A stretch of 64,000 nt of DNA from Psilocybe cubensis (taxonomy: Eukaryota), in assembly GCA_017499595.2 (NCBI GenBank), contig CM039006.1, positions 2,170,001 to 2,234,000 on the forward strand, given 5' to 3'. Below, piece after piece: positions 28,004-59,930 of the stretch (its first letter is position 1; each line of letters opens with the position of its first letter). The notes under the pieces are model-generated. The model worked only from the letters and a program-made list of their open reading frames with translations, did no database searches and had not been told where the DNA came from. Both the position numbers and the translations under genes were made by a program.

Positions 28004-28647
28004 TCAGTAAAGTGTATTTTTTCTCGTTTTTCTTCTACCCACGCATGCCTTCTTTGAATTTTACGCTCTATTTATTTATTAGCCTCTGATCAGGTCCTTT
28101 CCCTCTATCCTCCCAATGTGTTCCGTTTCTCACTGTACGCAATGCGCTTCGTGCACCAGATATCGACGCATTTGTATGTGTATTCTGTTTTCTAACCCTT
28201 GCTCCTTGTATTTTGTACTACCTCTCTTTTCGCTGCGTTGGGCAATATACCGACAACGGTATTTCTATGGAGCTGTCTTACTGATTTGTAAAACTTTTAA
28301 ATTTGTATATTGTCTGTAGTTGTCTTTGTAATACCATTCCCCTTGTGAGTGGTACACGTATGAAGCGACCTTTCCCTGTTGTCAAAAATCTATAGAAAGT
28401 CTATGGCGATGGCATTGCAAGCGCACGGGCCACCATCGGAATTTTTGAACCTAGTTCGACACCTTTCGACACTTGGCTGGGATTTTTTACCACCAACAAT
28501 CGGCAACACTCAGAGCCCTTGTTCCTCCCTTACAATCTGCGTCCTTATGATCTTTATGGCTACAGAAACTGAACTGTCCAATGAAGATTCGCACCATGGA
28601 AGTATATTGTATGCGATAACGATATTATAATTAACACCCAATCTAAA

Positions 28648-28905
28648 GTGCAAGGGAAGAAATACAAGAGCGTGTTCTGTCATGGCGACCTTGGGCCTCA
28701 TAACATCATCTGGAATGATGGTAAAGCGGTTTTTATCGATTGGGAAATGGCGGGCTGGTTCCCAGAATATTGGGATTATATTCGGACACATGAAGCTCGT
28801 TGGTGGTTCACAAGTTGGTTGGATATGTTCAAGGAGGTAGTGGACAGATACGATGATGAATGGGATGTCCAGTTTGCAATGAAAGGGTATTTTGCTTTCC
28901 GATAG
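28648..28905 (+). pseudogene. C-terminal fragment of an aminoglycoside-phosphotransferase/choline-kinase-like gene
   Basis: FCHGDLGPHNII and FIDWEMAGWFPEYWDY motifs. I see no N-lobe exons or start codon upstream. Confidence 0.7.
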
Positions 28906-29675
28906 TTCTGGTGGTCATTTATATAAACGCATGTTAAGCGGGTTCATCATGTCCTTTGAAATGTTGCAAATTGTATTTCTATCTAGTCTGGACTGACAAA
29001 CAAACTTCAGAACTACCGTCGAGTGCGCATGAACAGAAATCTGAAGTTGTATTGTGTCACTTTGTGTGGTTATACGCCACCAGTTCACAAAGTGGTTTGT
29101 CGAAATTCATTTCAGTTTCGCACATGAGGCCCGATTTTGCTAGCGATTTGCCTGCTAGACATACCACACGTAGAAAGCCAGTCATCATGTACTGGAATCC
29201 CGCTTCCGTTTGTTGCACTGTTGACAAAGTTGGTTCCAATATTCCACAGATCCCGGCCAGTTCCATCAAATCTGAGTGGGATGGCCAGCTTGGAATTAAA
29301 GCGTATTTTATTACAAATTAACAAATTCTTGGGTATTTTACGGCAGTGGTACTTGCTTCATGCACTGACATTTACTAAAATATTCTCATGAAGGGCTCTG
29401 AAGTTTTAGATGGTGTTTTATGGAGACCATTTCCAAAAACTATTTCGTCGAAGTGCACGCGTAGATAATTCTGCTGATATGACTCGGATATTGATTTTAT
29501 TGTGCGGGCCATGCATTCCAGTCAGGTTTGAGTCAGGTTCGGAACATGCCATGCGTTCGCAGCACACGCACGGTGTTGATGTCCTTTCGTAATGCTGAGT
29601 CAGTTGTCCTGGCAGTCCTGACCCAAAATCGAATATAAAACCTTGTTGCTCATATGAAGGCATGCGTAGGGAGCC

Positions 29676-30649
29676 ATGTCCGCTGTGCCCTCACAGAAGG
29701 TTCAATCACTTGGAAAATATTTTCTTCAGAATCCGAACGGCAAAAGTGCACAAAGCGTAGCGTGGCAAATCGATCACCGACTTCATCTCGTGTCGTTCTG
29801 GGATATCAAGCCTGGTTCGCGGGTGTTAGAAATTGGATGTGGTCAGGGTGATTGCACAATTGTACTTGCAGATAGGGTTGGAGATGCAGGGCATGTAGAT
29901 GCGGTGGATCTCGGAGCGCCTGATTATGGTGCGTGGCTTGGTTGTTTGATAATGCTATTGAGCAATACTAATATTTACTAGGCGCACCATACACCTTATC
30001 CCAGGCGCAGGATTTCATAAAATCTGGTCCATTGGGACCAAGGGTGACATTTCATCTCACCGTCAATCCAATTGAATACCTAAACAACCTTCCGGAATCT
30101 TTTGTTCCATACGACTATGTGGTTTTATCCCACTGTATCTGGTACTTCGCTTCTCCAGAGGTCCTCTCCCGAACTATCAACAGCTTAATCGGCAAAACAA
30201 AACAACTCTGCGTCGCGGAATGGGGATTGCGAGCTACAAAAATCCAGGCGCTGCCGCATGTACTGACTGCGTTGCTGATGGCCAATGTGGAGGCGAAGCG
30301 AAAGGTTCCATCGACTTGGAACATCAGATCCGTATTCTCCCCTGCTCAGATTCTCTCACACATCACAGAAGGAGAAAAATTTGGGCTGGAGAAGCAGCAG
30401 ATCATACAGAGCAACGAGGGCCTTAGGGATGGATACTGGGAGGTATGGGGGATACGAGAGGAGAGGAAAGATATAATGCGTACTTTGCAAGCTGATGGTG
30501 TTGGAGAGAAAGAACTCGCGGCATTGATTGCTGCGTTTGACGCGGTGGACGTTAGTGTAGCACTTTTGGATGACAGTGGAGATGCAGCAGCGGGACTTAA
30601 GCAAGTCAAAAGTATGGACGTTTGGGCGGCTATTTTTGTAGCGTCGTAA
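29676..30649 (+). CDS. Class I SAM-dependent methyltransferase (UstM-like family)
   Basis: HRLHLVSFWDIKPGSRVLEIGCGQGD, GHVDAVD, DYG|APYTLSQAQ, SHCIWYF, AEW and NIRS. One intron at ~29929-29981. Confidence 0.85.
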
Positions 30650-32379
30650 ATTGATCCCAAATTCGTGATAAGTATTGTGAAATGTGCTTGGATGGAATCA
30701 GAGAGAGGAGTACTTTGTGTTGATAAAGTTAGTATAGTGAGATTGTATTGAAATTGTTGAAAATGACAACTTTTCATTATTGGAATATCCGTGGAGTTCG
30801 AGGACGCTAGCAGTGCAATGAAAGGACTCGATAGGTGTGATAGATTTGATGTACACTTTTAAACGTCAAAGAGTCGGATATGCACGGTTAGTCCTTCGGC
30901 GTCTGATGGGTGTTTCACAGACACTACCACAGTAAGTTTGCCACGCAGTATGTATACGTACACTCTCACTTCGTTCTGATAAGCTTTTTGAGATTTGATA
31001 GGGATTTTCTTTTTGAGTTGCCATTGTCACGCGGCTATGATATCCGTGTCAATATCGTTATTTGACAGGACAGGGCCCAGAGTCAGGACTGTTACAAGTT
31101 AAAAAAATCAAACTTAGCAAGGCAGGGTATTTTAGGACTTTCGGTTCGATGGCATGGCTCACCGCGAGTGTGAAAAGTTGTTATTTTTGAATTTAGACTC
31201 ACGGTGCAGAGTCCCGCCCGAACTTAATGCTGGCTTTATGGATTTTCATAAGTGGACCAGAGCGAAATCCTTTGCTACGATCACAATGCATTTTTTGTAT
31301 ATCCATAAGTACTGGTTTTACAAACATCCTGCCTTCATGGTATTAATTGCTATGTTAAATTTATAAATGGCATGCCCGCCAATCATATTCCATGACACGG
31401 GTTAGGGCCAGGGAAATGGTCCTTCGATTCCTCATTCTCGAAGGCTGGAACGAGCTAATGATTTGAATGAGATGGTATCGTATACAATGGGTTAGATGAT
31501 TATTGGGGTAAGATATAGATGCGCTCACTTTGGCAGCGCTGCGCAGCTTACGGACTCGGAATGCATGGCAAAACAGAGGCACGAAGCAGAAGAAAAAGCA
31601 AGAGAATTAGAAAAAACGGGTGCCGTTCACGTCAATACAAATTTGTAACCATAGTACAATGCGATGCCGGTGGAGATGCGGTGGAGAAACACAAATAAGT
31701 CAATGGTCATGTACGATTGGGCGGCTAATTTTGTTGCCTTCTACATAGACATAAATTGATGATACATATAGACGTATAATCCTGAGAAGGTATAGATGAT
31801 ACCAATACTTTGACACTGATGCTCCTAAAATCGTGGTAGATTACCGACTACCCTCGGACTCAAACAAAGTGCGAACATAGTGACAACAACTTGTATCCGA
31901 AGGGGTGTCTGATCTTATAACACTTGAGAGAAGGTGATAGATTTAGGGTCACTTTTAGACCGATAACGAGGGTCAGATCTCGGAGAAATAACAAGTTATT
32001 AAGAGCTTCCTGCAGGCAGGCTCTGGCACCCCCTCGGGCCGCCTTAGCATGTCCTATATCACGGAACTCAACAAAAATAACGTACACAAGCTCATCAGAC
32101 TTATGGTCAGACTCTGTGACCGAACTTGTGATAGAAGTGGCAGATTTTACGGCATAAAATATGGCTTAGAAAGCTATTGAGAGGTATGGGTGCTGGATAT
32201 TACTTCAGCTTCAGCTTAAGCAAGGAGATGATACAGGTCCCACACATACGGATTGTGTTCATATCTATTGACAGAGCGAGCAAAGCACATTGATCTATAA
32301 AAGCTATCTCTTGACAGAGCGAGCACAGAGAAAAGATCGGCCATATCCGTGTTATTTTATGGCAAGCCCAGATCCCACC

Positions 32380-32584
32380 GCTGGCGCTCATACATATTTT
32401 CAAGAAAATAAGACCCAGTGTTTATGTTTCCTACATTTTTTTGACGTATTTTATTGGAATATAGGCTTCGGGCTTCCCTAATTGGGTAACCCCGAACTCT
32501 ATATACGAGAAAAATACGTCAAAAACCAACAGGAAACATAATTACCGATACATATTTTTCTATCAAATATGTATCAGCGCCAGC
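32380..32584. repeat. Imperfect long hairpin / foldback element (MITE-like)
   Basis: Nested arms centred at ~32482: gctggcgct/agcgccagc, ttatgtttcct/aggaaacataa, ttttgacgtatttt/aaaatacgtcaaaa and ttcggg/cccgaa. Weaker pairing extends to ~32312/32650. Confidence 0.8.
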
Positions 32585-33189
32585 AGTGTCCGGTTGTCGA
32601 TCGAGAGGTATTTCAAACTTGTACCCATTTTCTAGTCGCCGCTCTATGGCCACCAAATTGCAGCCAAATCGAACATGATATCCATATATATAATACTAAA
32701 CAAACTTCAGAATGGTGTCCCTGAATATTTAGATACGATATATCTCACCCAGGTATCTTCTCCAGCAAACGATGTGTTTTTGTTGTAATGTTTGTACACC
32801 AGCGCATTCAATTTTTCACAAGTGCGTGCCGAGATGCCTGTGATGGCGTGTGAAGCGGCAGACTCCAGGTGCTCATTCAAGTTGAGGAGCTGATTCTAAG
32901 AAAACAAACTACTTCTTCTTGAATACAAAAACTCTGACGGTTCTAAAAGTGAAAAAGAAAAGCATATGTGCTAAATTCTCAGAGATAAGCAACGGATGTG
33001 CTTTACTTGTGCTTCACTCATTTTTTGTTGAAGATGCCGAGCCAAGTAATTCAGCTTTCACACGGCCTTACGGCGAGCACGGCATTCGCTTGGTGCGCGA
33101 AAATCAAAAAGGTGAGCCTCATTGGAAGTCATAAAAAATGTCATTGTATATTGTTTTTCTTTCAGATAGGTGCACATTCCAAACTCTCC

Positions 33190-33473
33190 TTAGCGGTCTG
33201 GGCAGGGAATTCCAGGACAATGACATCTAATAGTGCCTAGCACACCAATTGTCAGTACACATGTGAGAATGGTTAATCATATTAGAACAAATATGCGTAC
33301 AAGGAATAATAACTATGGATTAGGAGGGACAACAATCAGATAAAGAATTCATCGATATAAAATTTCTTGAGTATCTCACCGTCAGTATCGGGGATTGGAT
33401 TTGCCATTGCAGTAGCCAACATCATGGCGGCGACGATGGCCTGCAAAGCGGTTGAGAGTTTGGGAAGGTGCAT
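33190..33473 (-). CDS. Small secreted cysteine-rich peptide A (50 aa): MHLPKLSTALQAIVAAMMLATAMANPIPDTDVIIPCTIRCHCPGIPCPDR
   Basis: Exons 33473-33380, 33312-33301 (12 nt) and 33236-33190. Introns are GTGAG..TAG and GTACGC..ACTGAC..CTAG. The structure is identical to the neighbouring paralogue. Confidence 0.85.
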
Positions 33474-33539
33474 TGCTCCTTTGACTCGAGTAACTGCTTT
33501 GTTGTAGATCTGAGGGTCAGGTCCTTGGTTGAACTCCAT

Positions 33540-33596
33540 TTTATATCTTCAGCGATGCAAGTAAATTTAATTTAAAGAAGCAAGGGGATCCGCCAT
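33540..33596 (-). promoter_or_regulatory. Conserved upstream block of peptide gene A (includes TATAAA-like element)
   Basis: 49/57 nt identical, ungapped, to 34433-34489. Lies 67 nt upstream of the ATG. Confidence 0.65.
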
Positions 33597-34044
33597 ACCC
33601 GCTCTTTTTTTTGGAGAGGGTAGAACTAGAGGTATCGGGTTGTGTATAGTTGCCGGATTGCATATTTATCCCGTCTATGGAATGATGCAGTCCCATGTAT
33701 GTATATTTACCTTGAGAACGATTGTCATCATCATCATGAGCGCTGTTGGCGCCCTAATTGTATTTAGGAGGTAAAAATGAATCAGGTACGTGTCTTCACT
33801 TGTTGTTGTTCTTATGGGCGATGCGTGGTCAAGTGAGCCGGCGTTTGCACCGACTTTGTTTTGGGCGAGTGCAGCATCCAAATTTGGTGTACGAGGCGTT
33901 TTCTGACTCGTTCATTAAAATTTAATGTAAACATTGTATATTCCGTTATCAGTTGGCCTGAGTGGACATACAATATACTAAACGATAACATTCCTTTACG
34001 TTCTATCTTTGCTGGGTTTCGTAGAGCACTCGATCCAAAAGCAT

Positions 34045-34362
34045 TCATTCGGCGCAAGGGGGTATGGGTATACCAGGGCAAAAACACGGAGTAATACCTA
34101 GCACGCCAGTAGTCAGTACGCAGGCAAAGATGATCAGATCACATCCTTGATATCTAGCTAGCTATAGGGAAGAGGCGTACAATGTGGCATAACTAGAGTA
34201 GAAGGGATGTGTAGAGGCAGACTCAGAAACACATCTTGGGTAGCTATAGATGGAAGCCTCACGTTCAGTGTCGGGGATTGGATTCGCGGTTGCCACTGCT
34301 GTGGCTAGCGTTATGCCAGCGACGATGGCTTGGAGAGCGAATGAGAGTTTTGAGAGGTGCAT
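34045..34362 (-). CDS. Small secreted cysteine-rich peptide B (54 aa): MHLSKLSFALQAIVAGITLATAVATANPIPDTELMPHCITPCFCPGIPIPPCAE
   Basis: Exons 34362-34263, 34192-34181 (12 nt) and 34097-34045. Same intron phases, donors and branch site as peptide A. Confidence 0.85.
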
Positions 34363-34432
34363 TGTTCGGTTGACTTGTGTAGGGTGTTGCTTTGGCGGAA
34401 GTAAGTGTCGTGGATTCTTGGTTGGAGTGCAC

Positions 34433-34489
34433 TTTATCTCTTCCGTGATGTAAGTTAATTTAATTTAATGACGCAAGGGGATCCGCTAT
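34433..34489 (-). promoter_or_regulatory. Conserved upstream block of peptide gene B
   Basis: Paralogous to 33540-33596. Lies 71 nt upstream of the ATG. Confidence 0.65.
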
Positions 34490-35454
34490 GATCCATCCCC
34501 CGTTTATGTCGCGGAGAATTTTCAATTTTCAATTGAGGGAGATCCGAGTTGGTTGTATGTATCTTTATATTTATTTTGAGAGTGATCACCAGTGCTCAAG
34601 CTCAGCGCTGACGCCCATTGGAGCGACGCATATTGAAGCACATGCATATTTCTATGCGAAATGTTAGCTGTAGATGATTACGGGATGTATATCCAATTTG
34701 ATTTATTTTTACAGATGGGATTAAGCGCCCGCCCGGTGTGCCAGTGCCAGTGCCGGTCCCACTAGCCCGAGGCACCGAGCAGCCTGTCAGTTCAATCAAA
34801 ACCTCCCCTTTATTTGGACGCCAGTGTGCGACGGTACGAGCGATGACTCTAACCTTTTGGATCACCCAGCTCAGGCTAGCGCTCGGGGAATAACATTCTA
34901 GGTGTAGTGAGAACATGCATGCATACTACTTACTCAAGGCCAATGATTCCCACGAGGTATAGATACCGATGACACTTTAACTTTAAGCTTTAAGCTTTAA
35001 GCTTTATCACTGGCAGCTCAGACTCTTCTGCTACGATACAAGTGTAGTTTCTGAATATTCATGCAAATTAAGCGTAAGGACGCTCTTTTTTTTCTTTTTC
35101 TTTTTCTTTTTTTTTTAGTTTTCGCCTCCTCATTTGCACAGAAGCCTGCTATATATATGATCCTCCGATCCTCCGACGACAATGACTATGACCAGACAAT
35201 GAATGACATACAAATTCGATGCGATAGCATTTGATATGATATGATACGATACGATACGATACGATACGGTGTGATGTGAATGGTGATGTGATACGATAAG
35301 AAGAAGCCAGCTGTTAGAATGTTAAAAAATAGGCCAGGGCAGGGCAGGGTGGCAGGAAAATGCCTTTTAATATCCGAGTCTGCACGCATCCTGCACGCGC
35401 CCGGTATCCCTTCATGTCTACCTACCTACCTGCCTGCATGTATGTATGCTTATA

Positions 35455-36046
35455 AGATTGGGCTCATCAGGAACCAGCACCCCCTTAGGTAAGCAAAAGT
35501 TGGCTTACCTCCGAACCTTTTCAACCCTTCTGCACTCACACTATTCTACATTTTTGAACCACAGATATGTAGGTTATGCTTCTTTGAACACATCTGTGGT
35601 TTTTTTTTTCAAAAAAATTTTGATCTCAAGAAGTTATAAAGATTTTAATTTTTTTCCTTTTTTTTTAGTCTAACACGTCAGAAATGGTGTTTTCTCGAGT
35701 TTGGGAGATTTTCGAAAATTTGACAATGTTCTTTTGGCCGCTTATATAATGGTACACGTGACCACACGTGACAATAAGTCACGCCTAAGTAATACCTCTC
35801 AGACTCATTATGGACTTCCAGAGACTACAATTTGACCTCTGAGGTGTAATTCTATTATTGTGGGCATAAAGGCTAGTAGTAAGGATTGTATATGCACATT
35901 TATGAATTTTTTTTTTTTAAACTTTTTGTCTGAAACCATTTTCCGTCAACATAACTTTTGATTTTTTTTTCGAGCTGGATTTTGGCCGCTCTTGGCGCCA
36001 AGCCCATTGATTACGTAAGGGTGCTGGTTTCTGATGAGCCCAATCT
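35455..36046. mobile_element. MITE with terminal inverted repeats and TA target duplication
   Basis: Left end agattgggctcatcaggaaccagcaccc matches the reverse complement of the right end agattgggctcatcagaaaccagcaccc (27/28). TA flanks both sides (35453-54, 36047-48). The interior is AT-rich and non-coding. Confidence 0.85.
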
Positions 36047-38440
36047 TAGAATATACGTACATACACGCGCTTTCGTGAGAGTGAGAGTGTGTGAGAGTGT
36101 AGGGTGTAGGAACATTGGGATATTGGGATATTGGGACGTTGGGACGCTGGGAAGGTGGGAAGGTGGGAATCACGGAATCACGGCTAGGGATGTAGGGAAG
36201 TAGATAACCCCCTGACTCCCCGTAATATAAGCTGAACAGAGGTAGACCCTAGCTGAGATAGACGGATGGAGGGATGGAGGGATTAAGGGATAAGGGATAA
36301 AGGAATGAAGGGAATGAAGGGAATGGAAGGCAGCGACGGGACGGGACGGGATGCAGCTAAAAGAGGAAACCTTCGAGTTATGCAGAAGAGGTAGAAGAGA
36401 CAAAGAGGTGCAAAAAAGGTAAAACGCTAAAAGTGTTAAGCCATAAAATTTAAAATGTTAAAAAGCAAAACGAAGAACAATTACACGAAAAGCATAAAAG
36501 CAGGCAGACACATGGATTCGAGATTCGAGAAATGAAAATAAAAGGGTTTTAGGGCACCACCTTCACATTCACATTCACAATCACCTTATATCTCATGGCA
36601 TTTGCAAATTACATTTACCTTCACCTCACATTAACAATGACATCGCCTAGAAATCAGCGCATAATAACAATAGCAATTCACCTCGCATTCACAATCGTAA
36701 TTACCTCACAATCACAATTCACCTCACAACCACATCGCATCGCATCGCATCTGTGGCATAGCGCCGATATATTACAAAAAAAATGCATGTATATACGTGT
36801 ATGTATTGATAAGTAAAGAGTAAACAGTAGAAGTAACTGTAACTGCAACAGGAACAGGAACAGGAACAGGAACAGGAACAGAGTATCGAGAGTAGGAGAA
36901 TAGGATAGTAGGATAGTAGGATAGTAGGATGTTTGAGATAAAGTGTGAATCTGACTTGGAGATGGAGAGAGATGGAGATACCGAGCGGTTGTTGGTCACA
37001 TTGGTATCGGTATCTGTATTGGTGGTATTGGTATTGGTATCGGTATCGGCATTGGTGGTACAGGTATTGGTGACGTCTGTGTTGGTGTTGGTGTTGGGAT
37101 AGGCCAATACGGTATCAAAGCTGATCGAATCATAGGCTCGAAGGAGGATGAAGATGAGGATGTACACGGAGACAGAGAAAGAGAGAGAGAGAAAGAGAGG
37201 TAATGAACAAGAAAAAAAGCGATAAGAAAGAATATACAGATGTAAATTGGATGGTGGGAGGGTAGAGTACAGTACAACAACCAGAGTCATTGGCTCTCGA
37301 GTCGAGTCAAGTCGTGTCGAGTCGAGTCGAGTCGAATTTAGGTGAATTGTGACGAGGAGAGGAGAGTTGTGTCGTACTGCTGATCGTGTGTCGGAGTCAA
37401 AAAAAAGTCCAAGTTGAAGATATCATAAAGTCCAAGTCCTTAATCAAAGAATCAAAGAATCAAAGTAAAAAATCGAATTCGAAGTCGAATTCGAAGCCGA
37501 AAGGCAAAAAGGCAAAAAGGCAAAACGGCAAAAGAAAACCAATGCCCAATGCCCAATACTAATACCGATACCGATAGACGTGTGCATAGAACCGATAGGC
37601 GTGAGCAGAGATAACATCACCGTCGTTGGGTTCGTCGTTCCGAGTTGCAGTTGCAGTTGCAGTTCAAGTTGCAATTACAGTTTCGCAGCTGTAGACAGTA
37701 GATAGTACACGGGAGAAGGGAGAAGGGACTCGGAGATGGGACACTGAAATTCAATTCAACGCGCCCAACCTGAGCGTTGTGGGGCATGCGACAGACGCTG
37801 CTGCTGCTGCTGTTACGAGATGGGTAACGCGCATATATGTGATGCATAATCATATATCGTCGAGCGAACGTCCGAGTCCGGAGCCGAGAGTAGAAGGCAA
37901 AGGTAAAGGCAAAGTCGATATATGCGTGCATCCATCCTTCCAGTCAGACTATCAAGTATTGGGTATATATGCGCAACTTCAACGTCGCACGGTGTGTGGT
38001 GTGTGGTATTGGTATTGGAATTGGTATAATGCGCAGGACACGGTCAAGCCGCGATATATGCGCGATAATAAGGTATAGTAATCGAAATCGAACCGTAAAC
38101 GAAACACAACGTCCTTGAACAACGGGTTACGGCGTCATAAGATGATAAGATAATGAAGCGGACAGACGAAGCTGGCACGAGCAAAAGATGGAAAAAGACA
38201 CAAAGATATGGATGAGAGATGCACAGTAAATAGATGAGGCAGGGTGTATCTGTAGATGCGAGTGTCGTGGAAATGGAAACGGAAAACGCAAGGTTGCGAA
38301 GGTATGGTATGGTATGGTATGGTATGGTATGGTATGGTATTGTGCGTGCGTGTGTATTGGCGAGCTTTAGGAGTGTGGTATGCGAGTCTGGTCTATTCCA
38401 TTGAGGGGTATTGGGGTATCGGATGCGAGTTGGGTATACG

Positions 38441-40732
38441 TTACGTGTATTCATACACAACAAACTAGAACACACCATATCAACATCATCATGAAACCCA
38501 AACACAAAACCAAAAAAAAAAAAAAAACTGACCTTCTCATAAGGACACTCAGGCTCCCTCCCCCAACGCGGCAAACTCTGCGGCAGCTCGGGGCGCGCCA
38601 TATGCGCCGTGAACAAGCCATGGTGGTCCTGGTACCCCACACCCTCATCGGGGTACGACACCAGATCGTTCGGGTATGCCTGCGACGCGGGGGCGTAGAC
38701 GATGTACCCGTCCGCGGTGAGGTGGTCGCCGCGCCTATTCCAGAAGCCGCGGCGCATGCGCGTGTTGTACTTTGCAGGGGGCGTGCGGGGCGTTGGGAGG
38801 ATGGGCGGGCGTGTGGGGAGCTGCGGCGGTGGTGGGAGAGGGTTGCTGTTGGTGGGTGCGACGGCGGTGGAGGAGGAGGAGGGCGATGTGTGGGAGGGCC
38901 GCGATGACGGGCCGGTGGAGGAGGAGAGGGAGGAGGTGGGTGAGAATACGGTGTGTGACGCGGGCGATGTGACTGTGGCGGACGGCGAGGGGTACGCGGT
39001 GTGCGCGTGCTGTTGTGCGTACGCGTACGGCTGTGACTGCTGGTGGGGCGGCGATGTGGGATAGTTCGGGGGCGTGATGTTCGTCGGCGACGCGTGTGCC
39101 GAGGATGGATGAGACGGCACGTGGTTCCGCGGCGAAGGCGTCTTTGCGTTCGTCGTGGCGTTGGCGTTGGCGCTCAAAGGCAGATGCGGGTCGACGTACG
39201 TCGTATGTCGACTGCCCAAACCCCTTTCTCGTTCTCTTTCTCGTTCTCGCTCTCGTTCTCGGTCTTTCTCGCGCTCTTCTCTTTCTCGTTCCCGCTCCCA
39301 ATTGTGGTCCTCTGCCTTTTGATGTCGACTATGCGAATTGCTCGGGTAGATATACTGCGATTTCGGCAAATTCGGCATCGTGTGCGCGTGTTGCAGCGAC
39401 GAGCTACTGCTACTATAATAATTCCCATTCGTACCCACTCCTCCTCCTCCTCCTCCTCCCCCTCCAACCGCAGGTTGCTGCTGCTGCTGCTGTTGCGGTG
39501 GTGGTGGATAATACTTAATATGCTCCGGCGCGCGCACCGTCGAATTCAACGAACTTTGCCGCGCAGGGCCTTCAGGGATGGTATCAAGCGACTGCGTCGA
39601 CAACAGCGGGTTCGGGTGGTTCCTCACCGTGCGCGCAGGGAGCAGAGGCGTCTTCGCAAGCACAAGCGGCGAAAGCATGCTATCCGGCTCTTCAGACAGC
39701 TGATCAGCCAGCATCGGCTGTGCAGCCGCACCGAACTCGCGCTTGGTCGGTGACGCCGAGTTGGACCAAAGATACGACGACGTCGAGGAGGAGGAGGACG
39801 AGGAGCCGAGCGAGGTGGGCATCGTCGATTGTCGCGATAGTGGTGTAGGCGAGCTGGTTTCGCCTGTGCTTATGCTGAAAGAGCTCATGCGCGAGGAGAG
39901 ACTCGAGTCGATCGAGCTGTATGACCCCGCGCGCTTGGGCGACGGCGTGTTGCGGTAGTGCTCCGGCGTGCGTACGATCTTGCTGGAGAATGTAGGCTGG
40001 AGCTCGCGTTTCGCTGTGAATGACTCGGGCTCGCTGGGCTGGTGGGTGATATCGCCGTCGGTGTGCCGCCGCGGCGCGTTGGCGTTGGTGCTGGTGCTGG
40101 TGCTGCCGTTAGCGCTCGACTCGTCGTCATCGAGATCCCGCGGCTTCCAGATCCAGGGTGTTTGGTGCCCGCGCCGATAGTATTCTTCCCTGTATAGATA
40201 TCCACGTCAGATTCCCAGATCGTGATGAGAGAAAACAAAGCAGATGGACGCACACAGAGGCAGGAACCATGTTCTCCAATCCAAGCGGATTCGCGGACAG
40301 TTCTGTTTCTAGATACTCTTTACTAGGCGGCTTGGGTACCCGCTTGTACGGGTTATAGCTCGCTTGCTGCTGGGCGGCTTGCTGCTGATACGGCTGCTGC
40401 TGGTGCTGAGCCGGCGGCTGGTACTGCTGAGTCCAATGATGGCTCGGGATCCATGGCACATGCTGCTGCTGTGCGGGGGCGTTGGCGGGGTGCCTGTATG
40501 CGGGGTTGATTTGCCAGGAGCCGGCCTGCCACTGTTGCGGGTTGACAGAGACGCCCGCGGGTATGGGTGGCGGAGCGCCTGCGTATGGGACTGGGGGAGG
40601 TGCTGCTACTGCTGCTGCCGTGCCGCCGCGAGCCCAGCTGCTCTGAGAAGAAACGGGGGCAGATTGTAGTGGTGGATAAGTGCTCCTGTGAGCGTAGTGC
40701 TGGCTCTGGTATGGTTGAGCGTATGTGGCCAT
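38441..40732 (-). CDS. Hypothetical low-complexity protein with a conserved-looking C-terminal domain
   Basis: Exon 1 is ORF 40127..40732 (YNPYKRVPKPPSKEYL). An intron at ~40192-40250 leads to QTPWIWKPRDL and the ORF 38044..39888 frame with RRGFWNRRGDHLTADGYIVYAP. The last intron gives PYEK|FVVYEYT* (TAA at 38441-38443). Contains poly-Q, poly-G, poly-S and (RE)n tracts. Confidence 0.7.
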
Positions 40733-41112
40733 TATGATGTAGTTTAACTTTCGAAAATCGAAAACAAGGGCGATTGATGTGCGTTTCTTTTACAGCAGCC
40801 TTGAATGGAATGAATGCGAGGCTACTAAAAGGAATCAGAGGTCAGGGAAACATACACGCTATTTTCAATCTCCGACCGGCGTTAACGGTTGCGTGTGCTT
40901 TTGGGGTCCCTGCACAGCCTTAATTAGTAATAATAATAATTTCGAAATAGCATTAACGGAGGCAAAAATGCTCCCGGATTAGATAATTATTATTAAATCT
41001 CGGGGACGCGTTGTTTTGCTTTGTTTTCGTTGATTAATCCGTGCGATTGGGCTGTTCGTCCGTCTTGACGGTTCACATCTCACCTCCTCCTCCTCCACTA
41101 CCACCGCCCCCG

Positions 41113-46979: not shown

Positions 46980-49526
46980 CTAATTATCAGGATAATCGGT
47001 GCTGAATGTCAGTGCTTTCCATTTCTCCAGCCTAGCCAAAGTTTTCTCGCATTCTTCCTTCACCGCGTTATAGCAGTCTTGCCCGAGTGCAAACCCAGAC
47101 GGAATTTCATCGTCGCTCAGTACCGCCGCCAGTCCTTCCCTCTTGACTACGTCAATAATGACGTTCACCCCTCGCTCTGGGTCACCCTTCTGTTTTCCGT
47201 TAAGGGCTGTATGGATCCGTTATTAGCAGGTCAAATAATCAAAACAATATGAATAGGAATAGGCATCATACAAAATAGTAAAGTGTTATTGCTATGCCCT
47301 GCTTCATTGTAAGCATCAATGTTTGAAACTATCGGGGCAATGTGATCTATAATCTGTGTACGGAAGCACCCAGAATCAAAACAGATGCTGCGAAGTCCAA
47401 ACTGGGAGATCTCTTGGTTTAATGTATCCGCCATTCCTGCAGCATCAAAAACAAATTTTCAGTATGCGTTTAATTGTCTTATGGGCAGTTAGAATCTGTT
47501 TTTTTACCTCGAAGAGCAAACTTGCTCGCGTTGTATAGTCCAGTAAAGGGGAAGGGACTGGAAATAGTTTATTATTATTTGTCAAAAGTGGAATTGAAAG
47601 GAAAGTTGCGTACGCCCATCCAAAGCAGGATCCGATAAAGCAGATGGTGCCGGTGCCTCGCTCACGCATATGGGGAAGGAAAGTGCGAGAGACGTTAAGT
47701 GCACCAAATAGGTTTGTACTTTAAACGTATGAGCCCTTTTCCATATTATTGGATCACGAACATCGCGAAAACCGCCAAAAACATGCATTGCCTTTGTACC
47801 CTTTTAAGGTAAGTCAGGAATTAGCCGACCTTACCAAGCCAATCCAAACATTTGTTGACCTTGGATTGCCTTTGAAAGGTTAGTGAATTATTAACTGATC
47901 TTTGCTTGGGATTTTAATATCTGTTCTTATTGTAAGTCATAGCAAAATATTTCAGATGTATGTATAATCAGAGAATTATAAATTCTACCTTATTTTCCAA
48001 TATAATTATATGCTTTGCCTTATATTGTGTTGTAAAGCTTTAGAAAAATATTTCCTTGTTAATGAAATCTTACCTGAAAATTGAAAGGCAAACCAATATC
48101 TAGATTAGTAGTGTAGGTTATTCATTGATTTTTAGTTATTATATTGATTGTTCAATATTTATAACCACGGGGCGCTCCTCACTGCTCAGAGCAAGCTCAG
48201 AGACAAAGTTCCGTGAGAGATCACATGACATAGAGTCAGACATTGGGGCCACGGAAATTGGGGACGGGGACTCTAAAAGACCGTCGCACAACTCAAAACA
48301 ACTCTGTCAAGGCTTTTCACTTCCCCATCTTCAAGAAATTAAATGGTAAGAATTTCTTCCTAACTTGTGAGATTCCTGCCGTATAACCTCTAGCAAGTAT
48401 ACAGTTCCAACAGTACTAGCACACATGTGGGACTGGGTTTGGCTGGTCAGATAGTAAGTGCACATCATATTCTGTACCATCTATTCCACAATGTACTCGT
48501 TTTCAACACGAAGGTGACCGACTATCTGATTCTCGCACTCGGTCTCGTTCTTGCACTTGGTCTCATTCTCGCACTCGGTCTCGTTCTCGCACTCGCACTC
48601 GCACTCGGTCTCGTTCTCGCTTTTAGCGTAGTTTTTTTGCTCTGCTGTTTTGACTTCTACAGTAGCTTTTTTTACTACACGTGTATTTGTATTCAGTTGG
48701 TTAATAAGCAATTTGTACATTTCTGGATACCGGCGGCCAAGCCAGAAAGAGTGAAATAAGATTCATTAATGAGCGCACATCTTTGCAAAGTTACCCAGCT
48801 TTGCAAGGGCAATTAAAGATTTGCCCTGCCTTCAAAGGTCAACTAAGAATGACCAAAAGTTACAAAGGATTCGCAATGTTGCTAATTATAACGTGTCCTT
48901 ACTTGTAAGTGCTTACAAGTAAGGCCATTTATAATCTTTGTGTCCTTAGTGCCATTTGTTACCTTTATTAGCAATGTATTATCTGGCAAACTTATGGCGG
49001 TTTTCGCGATGAAGTGAAGCTTACTTGAACTGTGCCAATGAGTCCTCGTGTCTGAGGAAGTGTTAATATCAGAATCTTAAAATATAGCAATGTCAATGTG
49101 TACGATGTTTCTTCCAAGCTTCCACGCAAGGCAAACCCTAACCAAGGCCCGTGATAAGCACCACAGCAGTAAAAAGCAAGCATTATATAAAAATCTTACC
49201 AGCGTTATTCATGACGACGTCCACACGGCCATAGACCTTGACCGCTTCCGCTGCAACTTCCTTCAAATGATCTAAACTCGCCGTAACGTCGAGTTCCATT
49301 ATGTGCGCCCCAATTTCCGTCAAGTTCCTGATGGTGTCGAATGACTTTGCACGTGTAGTGGCTATGACAAGATCGCCTCGCTTGATGGCCGCAATCGCAA
49401 GCGCTCGACCTATTCCAGACCTGCAGTGTTAAGGTATAAGTGTTAATGCACTCCTGACAATTGTCTACTGATGTGATCAACATACGAGCATCCGGTGATG
49501 AGCCAAACAAGAGGTGCAGCAGGCAT
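46980..49526 (-). CDS. Short-chain dehydrogenase/reductase, copy 1, with a transposon in one intron
   Basis: MPAAPLVWLITGCS|SGIGRALA, VVMNNAG, TNLFGALN, catalytic YNASK and C-terminal STDYPDN*. The spliced frame appears intact. Intron 47719-49024 is enlarged by an insertion. Confidence 0.85.
47761..49011. mobile_element. Non-autonomous CACTA/Plavaka-type DNA transposon (1251 bp)
   Basis: Perfect 17-bp TIR catcgcgaaaaccgcca / tggcggttttcgcgatg with a 2-bp TSD AA (47759-60, 49012-13). Removing it restores a 53-nt intron. Contains a subterminal palindrome at 48897-48924. Confidence 0.88.
48530..48620. repeat. Minisatellite of ~18-bp units (tctcgcactcggtctcgt) built from 6-bp subunits
   Basis: Directly visible. 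It generates the spurious LALGLV / ENETEC ORFs. Confidence 0.85.
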
Positions 49527-51155
49527 GTTAGATAAAGTTAAAGCTGGTATGTGATGAGGGTTTCGTATCAAAGGGTTAAATGGCAGGGATTCCATGTCAG
49601 CTTTTTACTTTTATACTTCGACATTTCCGACTCGCCACACAGGGGGTACCAAAAAGCTTACAATGTCCGGTCCGATAAGCTAAATTTGCTGTCTGCAGCT
49701 GTCCAGCTAATGCGCTGCCGAGGCTGAGAAATTTGTTCGACAAAAACCCAACGGTGTCAGCTGGTTCCGTTAAGATTTTAATGTATCCATTGCTCACTTA
49801 CGCACCACATGGAGCTTGGAGCTACTGTAAAAGCAGAAATTGATACTAAGACTCGTCCCGTAGATGCCTATGTAAAGTATGTTTTAATTCCTCTCTATAT
49901 AAAGAACAGTCTTATCTTTGATTTCAATCTGTAAATTCGAAACTAGACAGCCCAAGTTACCCCATCAGGAATTTCACTCTCAGTCAACAAAAAAGACAAG
50001 ACATATTTTAGAAAATAAATGTTCCTTGGGACTTCGGTTCTTAATCAATTTGACAGCCAAAATGATTTCACGGCTGTATAAAATGTCAATGGACAAATTT
50101 GAACAAAGGAATTACTGAGTCCCGGAGTAGCTAGTTGCTGTCTTGAGAAAGATCTAACAGATTTTTTTTTAGCTATGGCCTCTATAGTCTAGAAATTCTC
50201 CCATACTATTTGATAAATTACTGGATGTGACACGGCGAGCCTACTACGTACTAACCGATGAACACTTACATGCCAGAGTGTTATTTCTTGCCATTGTAAT
50301 CCCATATATTCTACTTTTGAATGACGCGGCTCACCTTTTCTTATATTGCGCACGCATCCCAGTTCTTGATCTTTTAGTATCACGAGTGCGTCTTACCCCT
50401 GCACTTTCTTGGTGTTGTTACAATAGGCCACATGCAAATCATATTTAATGTGTGTGATGTAGTATTGACGTTGATAAAGTTGGGAAAGGTATACGAGAAC
50501 TGCAATAGAACTGCTAAGTACTATGGATGGAAGGAAGCTAATGTGAAGGGGCAGCTCCTTAAGCCTCGTTTGACTTAGACAACGTTCAAGTGCATGTGCC
50601 ACAGATGATCCCTTGACCTTTAGATATGCAGGTCCAGATAGCTAATACGTAGTAGATCTATGTAGAGCGGCCCTTAGGGCCATTCACTCGTGTATCTTAG
50701 CATTCCGATTGCTTGATACACGATAACAACCAGATTGAAAAAGCTTCTAGTTTCATCAGCAAAAGTGACCAGACGCCCAAATGCCTTTGAGGCCTTATAG
50801 GGCAGGTCAATCCTTGATGTGACGTAATTATGTTGCGCAAACATTTGAATAATATTTGGTGGTGTCGAAAACATTTGGAGGGCATTCAAATGCTCCACAA
50901 ACATTTGACATCCCAAAAATGCAGTATAAATTATTTCAGGTTCTTGCAGTGAACACCCAATCATTGGTTTACCATAGAACTTTCAGAGAATGCTTGAGAA
51001 AAATTAAAATGGAGAACAAAACATTGATTTTAAATTGACGTCCACAGCAATGATTGAAGGTCTTTCAAATGCACGCAAAACAAATGAATGGATTCAAATG
51101 CACTCAAAATGATTTATGCATCAGAAAACCTATTCAACGTACAGATAAGGTAAGG

Positions 51156-54100
51156 TTAAAACTCTGCAAAACCCACGGCTTCTGTATCATCCATATCCCA
51201 GGGCTCCTCCCCATCTTCTCCCACAAAACCTTCATCGTTCTCCTCATCTTGATCTTCTTTCTCTGACTCGTCACTGTTTTCAGACTCTGAAGCGTTCATG
51301 GCAGCCTCTTGCTCAGCTGTAACGGGTAAATCAACTTCTTCTTCGTCATCTAAAGGTTCTTCATCACTGAGGTTGAAGTAGGAACCAAAATACCACGGTC
51401 GCATGCTTCGCGTGTACTCGTTGGTGCCCTTGTGGCCAATACCGTAGCCTAGATAGCGTACAAACATGTCACGATCCACGAAACTTATCATACATTAGCA
51501 ATATGTATCAAATAGAATAAATAAAACAACACAGCGTACCGGTTAACATAATAGAAATTCCAGTCGTGGTCTGGATAGTTGTCATCTTCCCAGTAGGCTT
51601 GCCGAGCAATGGAGGGGGGAAGAAGGGAGTCAGTCATCCCCAAATTAAATGCCGGAATAATATGTGAGGCCCTGAGTATATCAGAGGGGTTGAGGAAGCC
51701 AAACGCATCCGGGGAATCCGAATCAATGAACTTGAGTCGGTCTAATCGGCGTGCAGTCCACCCCGCACGAAAGGCATAGTCGACTTCAAACCATCTTACC
51801 CACAGAAATTCAAAACGTTGTGTTTTACCTCCGTTATGCTGTATGTCAGCGTCGAAGATACCAAGAACTCGAGCATACGAATAAGGGTGGGCCATAGAGC
51901 GACCTGAGTCCCCGTCCCGAGAGAGAGTCATGATATTACAATGGTTCCGAGGATTGATAGAATCTTGCTCGCGTCGTACGTCGTAAGTTGTATAGTTGAC
52001 TCGCAGGACTTTGTGCAAGTAAATTCGGTCGCTAAGGATGTTCACCTGTGCGCGCTCTTGGTCTGAATATGTACGGACTTGTCCTGTATTCGAATGGCCA
52101 AGTATTCGAGATAATATATGATCTTCGAGGTTAGAAACAAAGTCCTAATGTTTGAGCGAGTATTATTAGCACAGGTTGCAGTAAAGAATGGAGAGAAAAT
52201 TACCTCCGTAACTGCTGGGTCATCACAGTATTCGTTCATAAACTGAAACAAATACAGTTTATGGCGCTTGCTGGTCGATATTTGATGGTGCTCGGACGGT
52301 GAGATAGGAGGGAGACTCTCAGATTCCGAAGCTGAGACGATGTGTGGGGGTTTGATATACGATTTCTTAACACGCGAAGCCCTCGGACGCTTCTTGGACG
52401 GCTGTGCAGTGGCCTGCTTATCCTTTGAAGTTGAATTGGCCTTTTCGCTAGCCTCACTTTCTTCCAGTCTTGAAACCCGTGCAGCAATAGAGCGGAGCAA
52501 CTGCTCACGACGCTCATGACGAGAAATTTGGCGCTCAAACTGAGACCCCTTGTTGCTGCGTACAAAAAACCGTTTGACGCGACGGTGTTCCAATTCGCCC
52601 TGAGAGTAGTTAATATAATGTTGTAGTAACAAAAAATGACATACCCGTTGAGTAGAATAACCCTCTGTTGGGCCAAACATCCAGATAGTCTTGACATAAT
52701 CTCCGAGAGCGTGAAGCTTATACGTGAAGAGGTTCAGCATTTTGGAAACCTTCGCATTCAGAGACCCAGGAGCGGTGGGCTTGCCCTTCTTTGCATTATT
52801 GGCGGCACGACGGGCGCGGGCAGCGGTCTCCTTTGGTAGTTCCTTGGTTGCGTACAGCGGACAGATCTTAGAGACAAAAGATCTGAGCTCCTTGCCTAGT
52901 TGACGAGTGGCGACACCAAGTCCTGTAAGCGTGGAGTTGGTATGCATGCGAAGCTTGGCGAGCGCGTGCCATTCACAGAATGTGAAGAGAATGTCTTGAA
53001 TAAATTTATCCTGCGCCGGAGGAAGGAGGCCTTCAAAGACTGGCATGGAGCACTAGATAGAGCATATTAGTGTTCCGTAACGTGGAACGATGGCAAATCA
53101 TTTATACGTACCTGAAGTAAGTCTTCAAAATCTCGGGCTGCAAGCTTGGTCATGTCCGATGCATTGCGGTGGAAACGGCGTATTGTGCTTCGGCCAAACG
53201 TAGACACTTTGCGATATCTATTGGCAGGTGAATGCACGAAATTTAAATGATAATATATAGTACTTACCTCCAGTTGAGACGCTGAACACAGTTGCCACCA
53301 GCGGCCAGAAGAATACGCATCATATGCGTGAAGAAAGACTTCCAAACACCAAGTTCGAACTCGTGTAGGAAGTCAGGTACAAACATGGTATGAAAATTGA
53401 ATCCAAATTTTGAAAGACGTGTTGAGAATGCATTCTACACAAAGGTTAATCGTTGTAAGAAGGGGTAAAATGGATCAACGTACCCGTGTTGGGACGGCCG
53501 ACGTATCCTGAAGGATATCTTCTACACGTGTGCTTTTGACCCCCTTTCCATGTTTGAAGATCCACTTTCGACTATTCTCAACCCTGTCGCGCCGTTGCTG
53601 ATCGTCTTTGCGAATGTGCGAGCGCCGCTGTTGATCAACATGAGTTCCAAGTCCACTTACCCAGCGCTTCTGAATAAAGCACCGAGGACAGACACATTTT
53701 GCGAGGTAGCGGATGGTGGCAAGAAGGACTCTGAAGGTATGACTTGGTACGGCATAGACCAGAGTAAACAAAACAGACTTACTTCTCAGGATAGTCGGCG
53801 GAGTATGTAAAAAACCGGGGAAACACACGACGTATGACACCATCGGCACATTTAATAATGATGCCATGTTCGTAGGCTTCCATGAATTCCTCGTCGAGAA
53901 GAATGAGCCATACGGCATGCATCAGCTCCCGCTTTAGGTGGGTGATTGTTGCTGCCGTTGCTGTCAGACCGTTGTAAGCTTTCATATAGATGTCTTGTAG
54001 GGTTTTGGGCAGCTAGTCACATATATAGTTAAACGAACAGAAAACAGAATGAGAACAATGAACATACCGATGGTAAATACGCAATGTGGTGCGCTGAGAA

Positions 54101-55495
54101 GCTATTGGGATTCGCACGTACGTACTTTGATTGATTGCCAAATAGCAGGTATAACGGCCAGAGTGATGCGTTGCCAAAGTTAGCAAGCTGGGTCGAGTCT
54201 GACCACAGCATCAACGCAACAATAGCAATTTCGTGGGTATCGCTAAGTTGCGCTTCCTGATTCTGCTGTTTACAAAGATCGACATATTCATCGTAAAATG
54301 CGTCGGAGTTGTAGATCTCCGTAATGACGCGCTCTGGTGGACTCGAGGGCGATGGCTTCCAGAAAAGATGATGCGGTGTGAAATGCCATGATTCCGCGCT
54401 TTCATCCTGAAGGGCGGCCTTGATCGTGCCTACCAAACTCCGATAATAGACATTTGGTACCTCAAGGACTGGTGCTGCATCCTCGGAAGGGTGTAGCGAC
54501 TGCTCGCAAGGAAGAGGTATTTTGACAGTTGCATTGATCCAGCCTGCTTCCTGTCTGAACGTTGATTGTGAACTTTCGGGTGCGGAAGTCGCATTGTCCA
54601 TGCGAGCGAGTTCCCGTTTCGCACTAAAGTTCTCCAAATCTTTGACACAGAAATCCTCGGCAAGCAGAACCTCCCGGACCAAGCGATCAAGCTCACCCAC
54701 GGATTTCAGGGTAGTATTGCCATAGAACCAATGCATAAGGCGAAAAACCGTAGCATTCAAGAAAGGCGCAAAGCGGTTGGACACAGAAGCTTTGTCTAGG
54801 GATATTCCCATAACCTTGGCAATCCGAGAACTTGATTCCTTTGGGATAGAGGTCGCCAAGCCAGGTGCATTGCAAAGATTGTCGAGTTCCTCGAAGTCAT
54901 CAACCTCCTGTCTGGGAAAAGTTGGATATTCCCGGTACAAACCAAACTCGTTGGGCAGAGTGCGTGTTACGGTGGGTTCAAAAGAAGGAGCCGGCTCCGG
55001 AGTTAGTTCGTGTGGAGAAACAGGCTTTGGAGCAGATCGTCGGACTCGAGGAATGGGGGGAGGCATATGAGGTATACGGGTCGACGAGTTGGGTAAAAAG
55101 TCAACATGTTTTTTGGGATATTTACGTACACGTCCCAAACGCGTAGGAGGAGGGACAAACCCCTCAGGAAATGGGTCAGGGGGATCAGATCTTGGAGGCA
55201 AAATAACACCGTCGTCGATATTCTCGTAGGTCATAGAAACATCCTCCCATTCGGCATCCTGAAAGTATTCATTTGTCAGTATAATGTGTGTCGAAGCGGT
55301 GGACCATACCTTATTGAGTTCATGATTAACGGTGGTGTCAATCTTGACACGCTTCGCACTTCCAGTATCCCGGTCAACATCAAGCGGCTTGCAGACATTT
55401 TCAAGGTCTGCTTGCACAGCAGCACAGGTGATGCGGTGAATTCGAACTGCGTGCTTTGTTTTGAATGTCTTCTCGCAAGCATCGCAAATGACCAT
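51156..55495 (-). CDS. Plavaka-family transposase, multi-exon, apparently intact
   Basis: N-terminal C2HC finger (CDAC...HRITC), LWSDSTQLANFGNASLWPLY, YSADYPEK|VLLATI..CVCPRC, PDFLHEFELGVWK, AARDFEDLLQ, YKLHALGDY, GELEHRRVK, NYTTYDVRR, FLWVRWF and FVDRDMF. All splice junctions I checked stay in frame. Confidence 0.9.
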
Positions 55496-55715
55496 GATGA
55501 TAAGAAACAACAAAATAGAATGCCGCATTGCAGCATGCAATGCGCATGGAGACAAAAAAGAGGTCAAGAAGGTAATATTGACCAGAAAACACGCGTCGCG
55601 ACGCATCAGAAAAGATCACGTGTCCGTTCTCAACGGGCTTTTTCGGAAAACCTGAAACCTTTTGCCCTGTCCCATCACCATCTCCCTACTCTGCAACCAC
55701 CTACCTCGGGATTCC

Positions 55716-58614: not shown

Positions 58615-59930
58615 CTAATTATCTGGGTAGTCTGTAGCCAGAGAAACGGGCTTCCACTCTTCAAGCCTAGCTAGCGTATTTTCGCAATGCTTCTTCACAG
58701 TCTCATAGCTATCACTTCCAAGTGCAAAGCCGGGATGGACTTGTCTCCCGGTTGCCATTCCCTCTCCCCTAATAATGTCAATTATAGTATAAGCACCACG
58801 GACTGTATCCCCTTTTTGAGTCCCTTTGTATGCTGTGTTGATGTATCGACAAAAAAAGTAAGCTCCAGACATGAATGTAACAGAATGATTCATACCGAGC
58901 AGAGTCGCATTGGCACTTTCACCGGCATCTTTATATGCATCAAGAATGGGAACCCATTTCGGGAGCTTCTCTATTATGGGAGTGCGGAAGGCGCCAAAGT
59001 CAAAACAAATACTGCGAAGTCCGAAAGGCGCAATTTCCTCATGTAGTGTGTCGGATATTCCTAAATGCAACCAGATGAAAAGGTGGTAAAATAAGGTGCA
59101 CTAAGTCTCTGTATGTGAAGTTCTACTGACCTCGAATGGCAAATTTGCTTGCGACGTAGAGCCCACAGAAGGGCACGGGTCTAAATTCGGATTGACAACT
59201 TGATCAAAAGTGCAACACATTAAAATAAAAGGGACTTACCTCCACCCATAGCAGGATCCGATGAAGGAAATTGTGCCAGTCCTTTGCTTGCGCATGTATG
59301 GAAGAAAAGCACGAGCCACGTTAAGAGCCCCGAAAACATTTGTACTATGGGATCCGTATTAGCATTGAGTGCACCTCTGGTATCATAAATTATACGCAGC
59401 CAAATAACTCACTTGAATTGAGTAAGAGTTTCCTCGTGGCTGAGTATTATTGCAGTAGTGAGCAGAGGTTTTGTAATATGCTGTTTACTAGAAAATACTT
59501 ACGTAGTTTCTTCAAAGCTTCCTGGCATGATAAATCCTAAACAATACAGACAGACAGTTGAAACGCTGAGCACCAAAGAAAAGTAATATAAAACCACCTA
59601 CCAGCGTTATTTACAACCACATCAACCTTCCCATAGACGACGATAGCTTCTGCAGCGACAGCTTTAAGCTTATCTATGCTTTCGGTGACATCAAGAACCA
59701 TGACGTGAGCACCCAGGTCCTTCAAGTCTTTGATGGATTCAAAGGATCGCAGTCGTGTAGTAGCTATAACATGATCTCCCCGCTCGAGTACTGCAATAGC
59801 GAGCTCACGACCTATGCCCGACCTGCAGCATCGTGAGTAAGTCGTTCATGCCGCATAAAATTAGAGGTTTGGGGTATAAGTAAACGCACGAGCATCCGGT
59901 AATAAGCCAAACGAGAGCTGTAGAAGACAT
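58615..59930 (-). CDS. Short-chain dehydrogenase/reductase, copy 2
   Basis: MSSTALVWLITGCS|SGIGRELA, VVVNNAG, TNVFGALN, YVASK and C-terminal ATDYPDN*. Same exon layout as copy 1. Confidence 0.88.

Follow-up and report, generated by a model that had tools for sequence, protein, structure and literature searches.

A stretch of 64,000 nucleotides from Psilocybe cubensis (assembly GCA_017499595.2, contig CM039006.1, positions 2,170,001 to 2,234,000), referred to here as the window and numbered from its first letter, carries on its minus strand two three-exon genes arranged head-to-tail and lying 889 bp apart. These are gene A (33190-33473) and gene B (34045-34362). Their spliced frames are open over 50 codons in gene A and 54 codons in gene B, and translation of both yields a signal-like N-terminus, the motif NPIPDT(D/E) and four aligned cysteines in the frame C-x3-C-x-C-P-G-I-P-x(0/3)-C. 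The pair had been noticed in an earlier reading of the DNA letters (the original prediction), which took it for an unannotated family of tiny secreted peptides and from which the splice models and both motifs were recovered as described. The observation is confirmed, and the earlier interpretation holds in part. The two genes are real, tandemly duplicated and under coding constraint.

Exon 1 of gene A (33380-33473, 94 nt) starts with the ATG at 33473, encodes the signal-like segment ending in A-M-A and the following NPIPDTD, and ends in phase 1. It is followed by intron 1 (33313-33379, 67 nt, GTGAGA...TAG) and by a microexon of 12 nt (33301-33312), which gives the first base of the first cysteine codon; both of these are also present in a public gene model considered below. 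Intron 2 (33237-33300, 64 nt, GTACGC...CTAG) contains a branch-like TACTGAC at 33251-33257 and uses as its acceptor the first AG after that site. Exon 3 (33190-33236, 47 nt including the stop codon TAA at 33190-33192) supplies the rest of the cysteine frame with its P-G-I-P.

Gene B has the same architecture. Exon 1 (34263-34362, 100 nt) starts with the ATG at 34362, with no in-frame ATG further upstream within the open frame, and encodes a signal-like segment ending in A-T-A and then NPIPDTE, again with a phase 1 end. Intron 1 (34193-34262, 70 nt, GTGAGG...TAG), the 12-nt microexon (34181-34192) and intron 2 (34098-34180, 83 nt, GTACGC...CTAG, with TACTGAC at 34112-34118) lead to exon 3 (34045-34097, 53 nt including the stop codon TGA at 34045-34047). 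The four predicted junctions (33380/33312, 33301/33236, 34263/34192 and 34181/34097) all bound GT-AG introns in phase 1, of 67, 64, 70 and 83 nt, and in both genes intron 2 interrupts the first cysteine codon (T|GC in A, T|GT in B). A middle exon of 12 nt is not unusual in mushrooms. For Coprinopsis cinerea, internal exons no longer than 15 nt are reported in about 9% of the gene models, and misannotation of such microexons is said to be able to break gene models (PMC12230235).

The splicing scheme was evaluated by enumerating, for each gene, models with zero to two GT-AG introns of 40-200 nt and by comparing the C-terminal products over 26,196 A x B pairs. The originally predicted pair of models ranked first among all 26,196, with a score of 45 (mean -10.6, sd 9.9). 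The runner-up, with a score of 44, places the gene A donor 12 nt further on, at a position without counterpart in gene B. Residue identity between the two genes is also highest in the predicted reading frame: it is 18/24 for exon 1, where the five remaining frames give 10-14 of 23-24, and 6/10 for exon 3, where they give 3-4/10. At the nucleotide level the copies are 74% identical over all columns of exon 1 (79% ungapped, with a single 6-nt in-frame indel) and 58% identical over all columns of exon 3, where the net length difference is 6 nt; the introns show 53% and 60% identity and differ in length by 3 nt (intron 1) and 19 nt (intron 2). Coding length differences are multiples of three throughout, all coding indels being in frame. 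Intron 2 is almost unchanged between the copies at its 3' end, where the branch-like site and the acceptor AG are located.

An improbable alternative is that the main product skips the microexon, joining exon 1 directly to exon 3 and giving a three-cysteine peptide. Skipping keeps the frame in both genes, the corresponding models score 37-39, so that the microexon model is only modestly better, and microexons are often skipped or missed. Against this, the skipped product would have an odd number of cysteines, and its single intron would measure 143 or 165 nt, roughly double the 64-83 nt of the four introns obtained with the microexon. Genes A and B also agree in all 15 bases around the microexon (TAG|TTAT and TT|GTACGC) but differ at five of the six bases in its middle, and the public model of gene A contains the microexon as well.

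The pattern of substitution between the copies is that of coding sequence. Third codon positions account for 20 of the 39 substitutions (binomial p = 0.015), and the ratio of nonsynonymous to synonymous divergence (dN/dS, Nei-Gojobori) is about 0.27 overall, with 0.22 for the signal and pro region and 0.28 for the mature part, at a dS of roughly 0.6-1.3. Given these low ratios at such a dS, the copies go back to an old duplication since which the frame has been maintained; purifying selection has acted on the spliced frame between the two copies. In a simulation of neutral drift at 20-30% divergence (200,000 trials), an intact ATG, all eight splice-site bases, an open frame and all four cysteines were jointly kept in 4.8e-3 to 2.9e-4 of the trials, a survival figure in which the in-frame indels are not counted. 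Conservation in both genes, the ranking of the splice models and the drift results together therefore identify the pair as real and constrained at the coding level.

The contrast drawn by the original prediction between a conserved signal and pro region and a divergent cysteine-framed part was borne out, with 24/31 and 8/18 identical residues, respectively. Its comparison with the variable loops of toxins is descriptive only: the dN/dS of the mature part is 0.28, not above 1, the difference from the signal and pro region is not significant (Fisher p = 0.53), and no diversifying selection is apparent. The word family rests on a pair, since the 64 kb hold just these two copies and one weak relic. 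A 20-nt pattern taken from the pro region occurs exactly twice in the window, with none expected from 100 shuffles; two matches with one mismatch, at 29188 and 29605, are not embedded in any gene structure and were set aside.

The relic is a possible third exon 1 on the minus strand (32106-32198), about 1.2 kb downstream of gene A, in which ATC replaces the ATG, an in-frame stop has appeared and the donor GT is lost. A profile of the A/B unit matched it weakly (nhmmer, E = 0.0093 at 32097-32197), and an ungapped local alignment of 93 nt to exon 1 of gene A scored 19, a value reached by none of 200 shuffles (mean 11.3, sd 1.4, maximum 18). Probably a third copy of the unit has decayed here.

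This probable decayed copy shows that copies of the unit can die at this place, and it lends some weight to the explanation that genes A and B are themselves silent or decaying duplicates, with open spliced frames but neither expression nor a functional product. No spliced product of the two genes was found in the protein collections, and they lie in a gene-poor, repeat-rich location. Nevertheless, this explanation is considered unlikely. A dN/dS of about 0.27 at high dS and indels that are all in frame speak against decay, as does the retention of the ATG, the eight splice-site bases, the branch-like site, the four cysteines and the promoter block, the joint neutral survival of the ATG, splice bases, frame and cysteines amounting to only 0.03-0.5%.

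The promoter block just mentioned is a segment of 73 nt upstream of each gene (33524-33596 for gene A and 34417-34489 for gene B, both on the minus strand), 84% identical between the copies without any gap. Within it, some 66-70 nt ahead of the ATG, is a TATA-type element, which reads TATAAAA in gene A (33539-33545, 66 nt before the ATG) and is a TATA-like GATAAAG at about 34432-34438 in gene B. Just upstream of this element lies a core of 30 nt (GCGGATCCCCTTGC..TTAAATTAAATT), at 33564-33593 and 34457-34486 on the minus strand. These are its only two sites in the 64 kb, whereas none is expected from 100 shuffles, and the core is a candidate for a shared regulatory site.

Gene A has a counterpart in the public databases. 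A profile of exon 1 matched the 102-residue "hypothetical protein JR316_0010115 [Psilocybe cubensis]" with E = 2.4e-16, and that protein can be rebuilt letter for letter from the window by joining 33663-33599, 33546-33380, 33312-33301 and 33226-33162. Because the reconstruction is exact, the window is the JR316_0010115 locus, and gene A was already annotated. The claim that the genes are unannotated is thus half correct: no form of gene B containing exon 1 was found in the protein collections, and gene A has a deposited model that coincides with the one described here in intron 1, in the 12-nt microexon and in the donor of intron 2. That both models contain the microexon amounts, at best, to independent prediction and is no evidence that the gene is expressed. 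A P. cubensis genome paper, whose assembly may be the source of the record JR316_0010115, names FunAnnotate in passages that mention no transcript evidence (PMC8220353).

The deposited model departs from the one preferred here at both ends. It adds a 5' exon starting at 33663 and an intron of 52 nt (33547-33598), and it takes as the acceptor of intron 2 a second AG located 10 nt further on (33227/33226), which shifts the frame and abolishes the cysteine frame. It is very improbable that this annotation is right and that gene A encodes a 102-residue, non-secreted protein. The model has been deposited and is exactly rebuildable from the window; gene B, however, shares neither of its peculiarities, the position of the extra donor not being GT in B and the second AG having no counterpart there. 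With the extra intron, the best-conserved non-coding block would be spliced out and TATAAAA would become coding sequence. The C-terminal frame of the deposited model is 4/10 identical to gene B, compared with 6/10 in the frame with the cysteines. The Atlas structure model of JR316_0010115 is poor as well (predicted local distance difference test, pLDDT, 0.39; predicted template modelling score, pTM, 0.15), and the lack of any mention of transcripts in those passages of the genome paper also counts against the record, provided that it comes from that assembly. From comparison of the two copies, the gene A model with the first AG is judged better than the deposited one, and the public model at 33162-33663 on the minus strand appears to be mis-built.

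Searches for relatives returned little else. When the exon-1 alignment was used as a profile of 33 positions against 1.84 billion representative proteins (E up to 0.001), two matches were obtained, and the only true one was gene A's own public model; such a search misses diverged relatives, small fungal genes often go unpredicted, and the absence of further matches therefore carries little weight. The second match, a protein of 2,241 residues, covers only the hydrophobic positions 2-22, in seven stretches, and was taken as composition noise. Word-indexed protein searches gave no candidate for exon 1 of gene A with its read-through (24-79 residues), and only the model itself when the public model was used (56-179 residues). 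Thus, among predicted proteins of 24-179 residues no spliced form of A or B was found, and gene B did not appear in the protein collections searched in any form containing exon 1.

The statement that the peptides belong to no recognised family agrees with these results. No Pfam-A family was matched at E up to 10 by exon 1 of either gene, by the 38-residue exon-3 frame of gene B or by JR316_0010115, and no PDB chain was matched by the exon-3 reading frame of gene B. For residues 47-82 of JR316_0010115 a protein atlas gave no usable match by features, and its structural matches were unrelated bacterial families that resemble the query only in being helical. Two Rfam matches over 31500-35500 lay far below the gathering scores (25.4 against 83 and 17.9 against 90) and were dismissed. 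In the papers searched, the motifs NPIPDT and ANPIPD and the locus tag JR316_0010115 were not found; the matches listed for CPGIP, CFCPG and CHCPG were plant PGIP genes, CpG terms or scanning noise, and for mushrooms, Psilocybe included, nothing fitting emerged from the literature searched on secreted small peptides or on peptides with disulfides. Genes A and B are most suitably classed as a sequence family that is new but of a very common kind, that of the orphan secreted cysteine peptides.

The predicted products begin with a charged start and a hydrophobic core of about 18 residues (Kyte-Doolittle maximum of 2.25 over 11 residues), followed by A-x-A before a conserved asparagine. Hydropathy and the rule of small residues at -1 and -3, from which the signal-like character is judged, support this part of the original prediction. 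By general rules, such an N-terminus would be expected to act as a signal peptide and to be cleaved off, the four cysteines of a protein entering the secretory pathway would be expected to pair into two disulfides, and the invariant Pro-Gly-Ile-Pro would make a turn. After the presumed signal cut, proline makes up 6 of 26 residues in A and 8 of 28 in B. The pairs KR, RR and KK occur nowhere in either product, and each gene has a single core.

The proposed path starts with transcription from the shared TATA-type promoter, after which the two short phase-1 introns around the 12-nt microexon would be removed. The hydrophobic N-terminus would then direct the chain into the endoplasmic reticulum, where signal peptidase would cut after A-x-A, just before NPIPDT(D/E). 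The four cysteines would form two disulfides around the invariant C-P-G-I-P turn, giving a compact, proline-rich, slightly acidic peptide of 26-28 residues. Perhaps a Golgi dipeptidyl aminopeptidase of the STE13 type then takes off the two N-terminal X-Pro pairs, which would leave 22-24 residues. For this last step, which the original prediction had suggested, there is a precedent in the removal of XP and XA dipeptides from secreted peptides reported in Agaricomycetes (PMC9769878), and its extension to the A and B peptides themselves is speculative. Equally speculative is the final step, in which the secreted peptide would act outside the cell and bind its target through the variable residues.

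It is rated an even bet that A and B encode prepropeptides of 50-54 residues which give rise to secreted two-disulfide peptides. Several of the observations weigh against this reading and what follows from it. The lead of the microexon model over models that skip it is small, and the deposited model, with its later acceptor, loses the cysteine frame. All four donors are without T at position +6, T being the commoner base there in basidiomycete introns. The profile search retrieved no true protein other than gene A's own model, and the spliced forms were not among the predicted proteins searched. With dN/dS below 1 there is nothing to suggest an arms race, and the net charges, about -1 and -3, mean that the products are not cationic, which argues against a classical membrane-active antimicrobial peptide. 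Since the peptides would be proline-rich and slightly acidic, a rigid protein-binding ligand fits better than a cationic membrane-active peptide. With respect to role, an antagonistic or defensive ligand, that is, an inhibitor or toxin of competitors or grazers, is favoured over a self-signal, as a leaning that falls well short of an even chance.

The predicted products can be compared with several known peptide systems. With defensins of the copsin and plectasin type, which have the cysteine-stabilised alpha-beta (CS-alpha-beta) fold, they would share the character of secreted fungal disulfide peptides and the CxxxC and CxC spacings; defensins, however, have at least six cysteines, about 40-57 residues and a cationic character, whereas A and B would have four cysteines, fewer than 30 residues and an acidic one. 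Hydrophobins possess eight cysteines in a family-specific spacing, compared with four here. The MSDIN/cycloamanide precursors lack a signal and have a conserved MSDIN-type leader and a prolyl oligopeptidase partner, while A and B have a signal-like N-terminus and no such leader. Basidiomycete a-type pheromone precursors end in a CaaX box and have no signal, again unlike A and B, which have a signal-like N-terminus and no CaaX: the last cysteine is fourth from the end in A, where it is followed by Pro-Asp-Arg, and third from the end in B, so that its position is not conserved, and the residues after it are not aliphatic. The precursors of cone-snail conotoxins and of plant cysteine-rich peptides resemble A and B in their conserved signal and pro region, divergent cysteine-framed mature part, intron-separated modules and tandem duplication, but they come from unrelated organisms, show no sequence relation, and differ in that A and B carry no sign of positive selection.

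Like A and B, the small secreted cysteine-rich proteins of fungi are small, have a signal-like N-terminus and cysteines in even number, are duplicated in tandem and apparently lack relatives outside a narrow lineage. A and B differ from most of them in a predicted mature length of only 22-28 residues, in having just four cysteines in a frame of their own, and in matching no Pfam family. The KEX2-processed repeat proteins (KEPs) and alpha-pheromone-like precursors of fungi, Agaricomycetes among them, are secretory precursors, as A and B are predicted to be, with X-Pro dipeptides at the expected new N-terminus as in STE13 motifs. In A and B, unlike in these and in dikaritin-type precursors, there is no dibasic KEX2 site and there are no repeated cores, and X-Pro follows the presumed signal cleavage site instead of a KEX2 site. 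The KEP-derived peptides described in PMC9769878 also appear to carry no cysteines, the words "cysteine" and "disulfide" not occurring in its main text, and in this they differ from A and B.

A related alternative is that A and B are precursors of ribosomally synthesised and post-translationally modified peptides, with a Cys/Pro-rich core tailored by enzymes, for example by the product of an S-adenosylmethionine (SAM)-methyltransferase-like gene at 29670-30649, and not simply folded through disulfides. A short precursor with a conserved leader-like part and a variable core would suit such a system, and the methyltransferase-like open reading frame (ORF) lies 2.5 kb away, in a window that also has an APH kinase-like ORF, a family-2 peroxidase and short-chain dehydrogenases. 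On the other hand, no UstYa/DUF3328, tyrosinase or prolyl oligopeptidase domain, the last being the MSDIN partner, was detected in 78 ORFs scanned with Pfam. These 78 consist of 15 ORFs and 63 of the 106 ORFs of at least 85 codons between 14 and 52 kb, the 43 left out being either in the 15-ORF scan or overlapped by longer frames, and domains in split exons can be missed by such a scan. There are also no Kex2 sites and no repeats, and the neighbouring genes are on the other strand and were not duplicated with the peptides. Tailored precursors are accordingly held to be quite improbable, and simple disulfide folding remains the preferred reading.

Beyond the two genes, a broader interpretation may be considered, namely that A and B are the tip of a Psilocybe-lineage family of secreted, proline-rich, two-disulfide ligands of 22-28 residues, representing a new structural type with a cysteine frame present in no curated family. 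This is put forward tentatively, as doubtful at present. If it were true, microexons would make automatic annotation break or miss such genes, and the peptides would be inhibitors, toxins or signals. Should the peptides be made, they would rank among the smallest gene-encoded disulfide peptides known from fungi and would offer a compact scaffold that lends itself to synthesis and testing; research on the genus has centred almost exclusively on psilocybin. The locus also illustrates neatly how a short peptide predicted to be secreted can escape notice through a microexon and a wrongly chosen acceptor, gene A being frame-shifted in the annotation and gene B not found in the protein collections searched. 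The weight of the case is limited, since mushroom genomes commonly contain both microexons and secreted cysteine peptides of the orphan kind.

The peptide locus sits in a gene-poor, repeat-rich stretch. The segments 36500-37450 and 38044-40800 comprise short tandem and dispersed repeats with units of 27-33 nt and with Thr/Asn/Asp and Pro/Ile runs in translation and, beside these, an open frame of 720 codons (57% G+C) that is of low complexity, rich in Ser, Pro and Gln and without a Pfam match. On the other strand from gene A, at distances of 2.5-4.6 kb, are an APH-type kinase fragment (28585-28902, plus strand) and the methyltransferase-like gene (29670-30649, plus strand), the latter recognised by Pfam with E = 2e-5 to 7e-4 and containing, by eye, a SAM-binding-type stretch VLEIGCGQGD. 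An ORF with NPHP3_N/NACHT ATPase domains (17281-18657, plus strand), similar to fungal NOD-like receptors (NLRs), the family-2 peroxidase (19959-20507) and an RBR-type ubiquitin ligase are also present in the window.

Two tblastn matches (49382-49426 and 59787-59828) gave the appearance of a second family with a signal and pro region; they run antisense to two paralogous dehydrogenase-like stretches and were rejected. These stretches (49200-49540 and 59600-59950, minus strand) are similar to each other, lie about 10 kb apart and look by eye like the N-terminal exons of paralogous short-chain dehydrogenases, with their glycine motif; the only nearby Pfam adh_short match is the ORF at 47448-47720. 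A Plavaka-type transposase fragment (54029-55615, minus strand) and a DUF6698 ORF (56984-57862, plus strand) are remains of mobile elements typical of Agaricomycetes.

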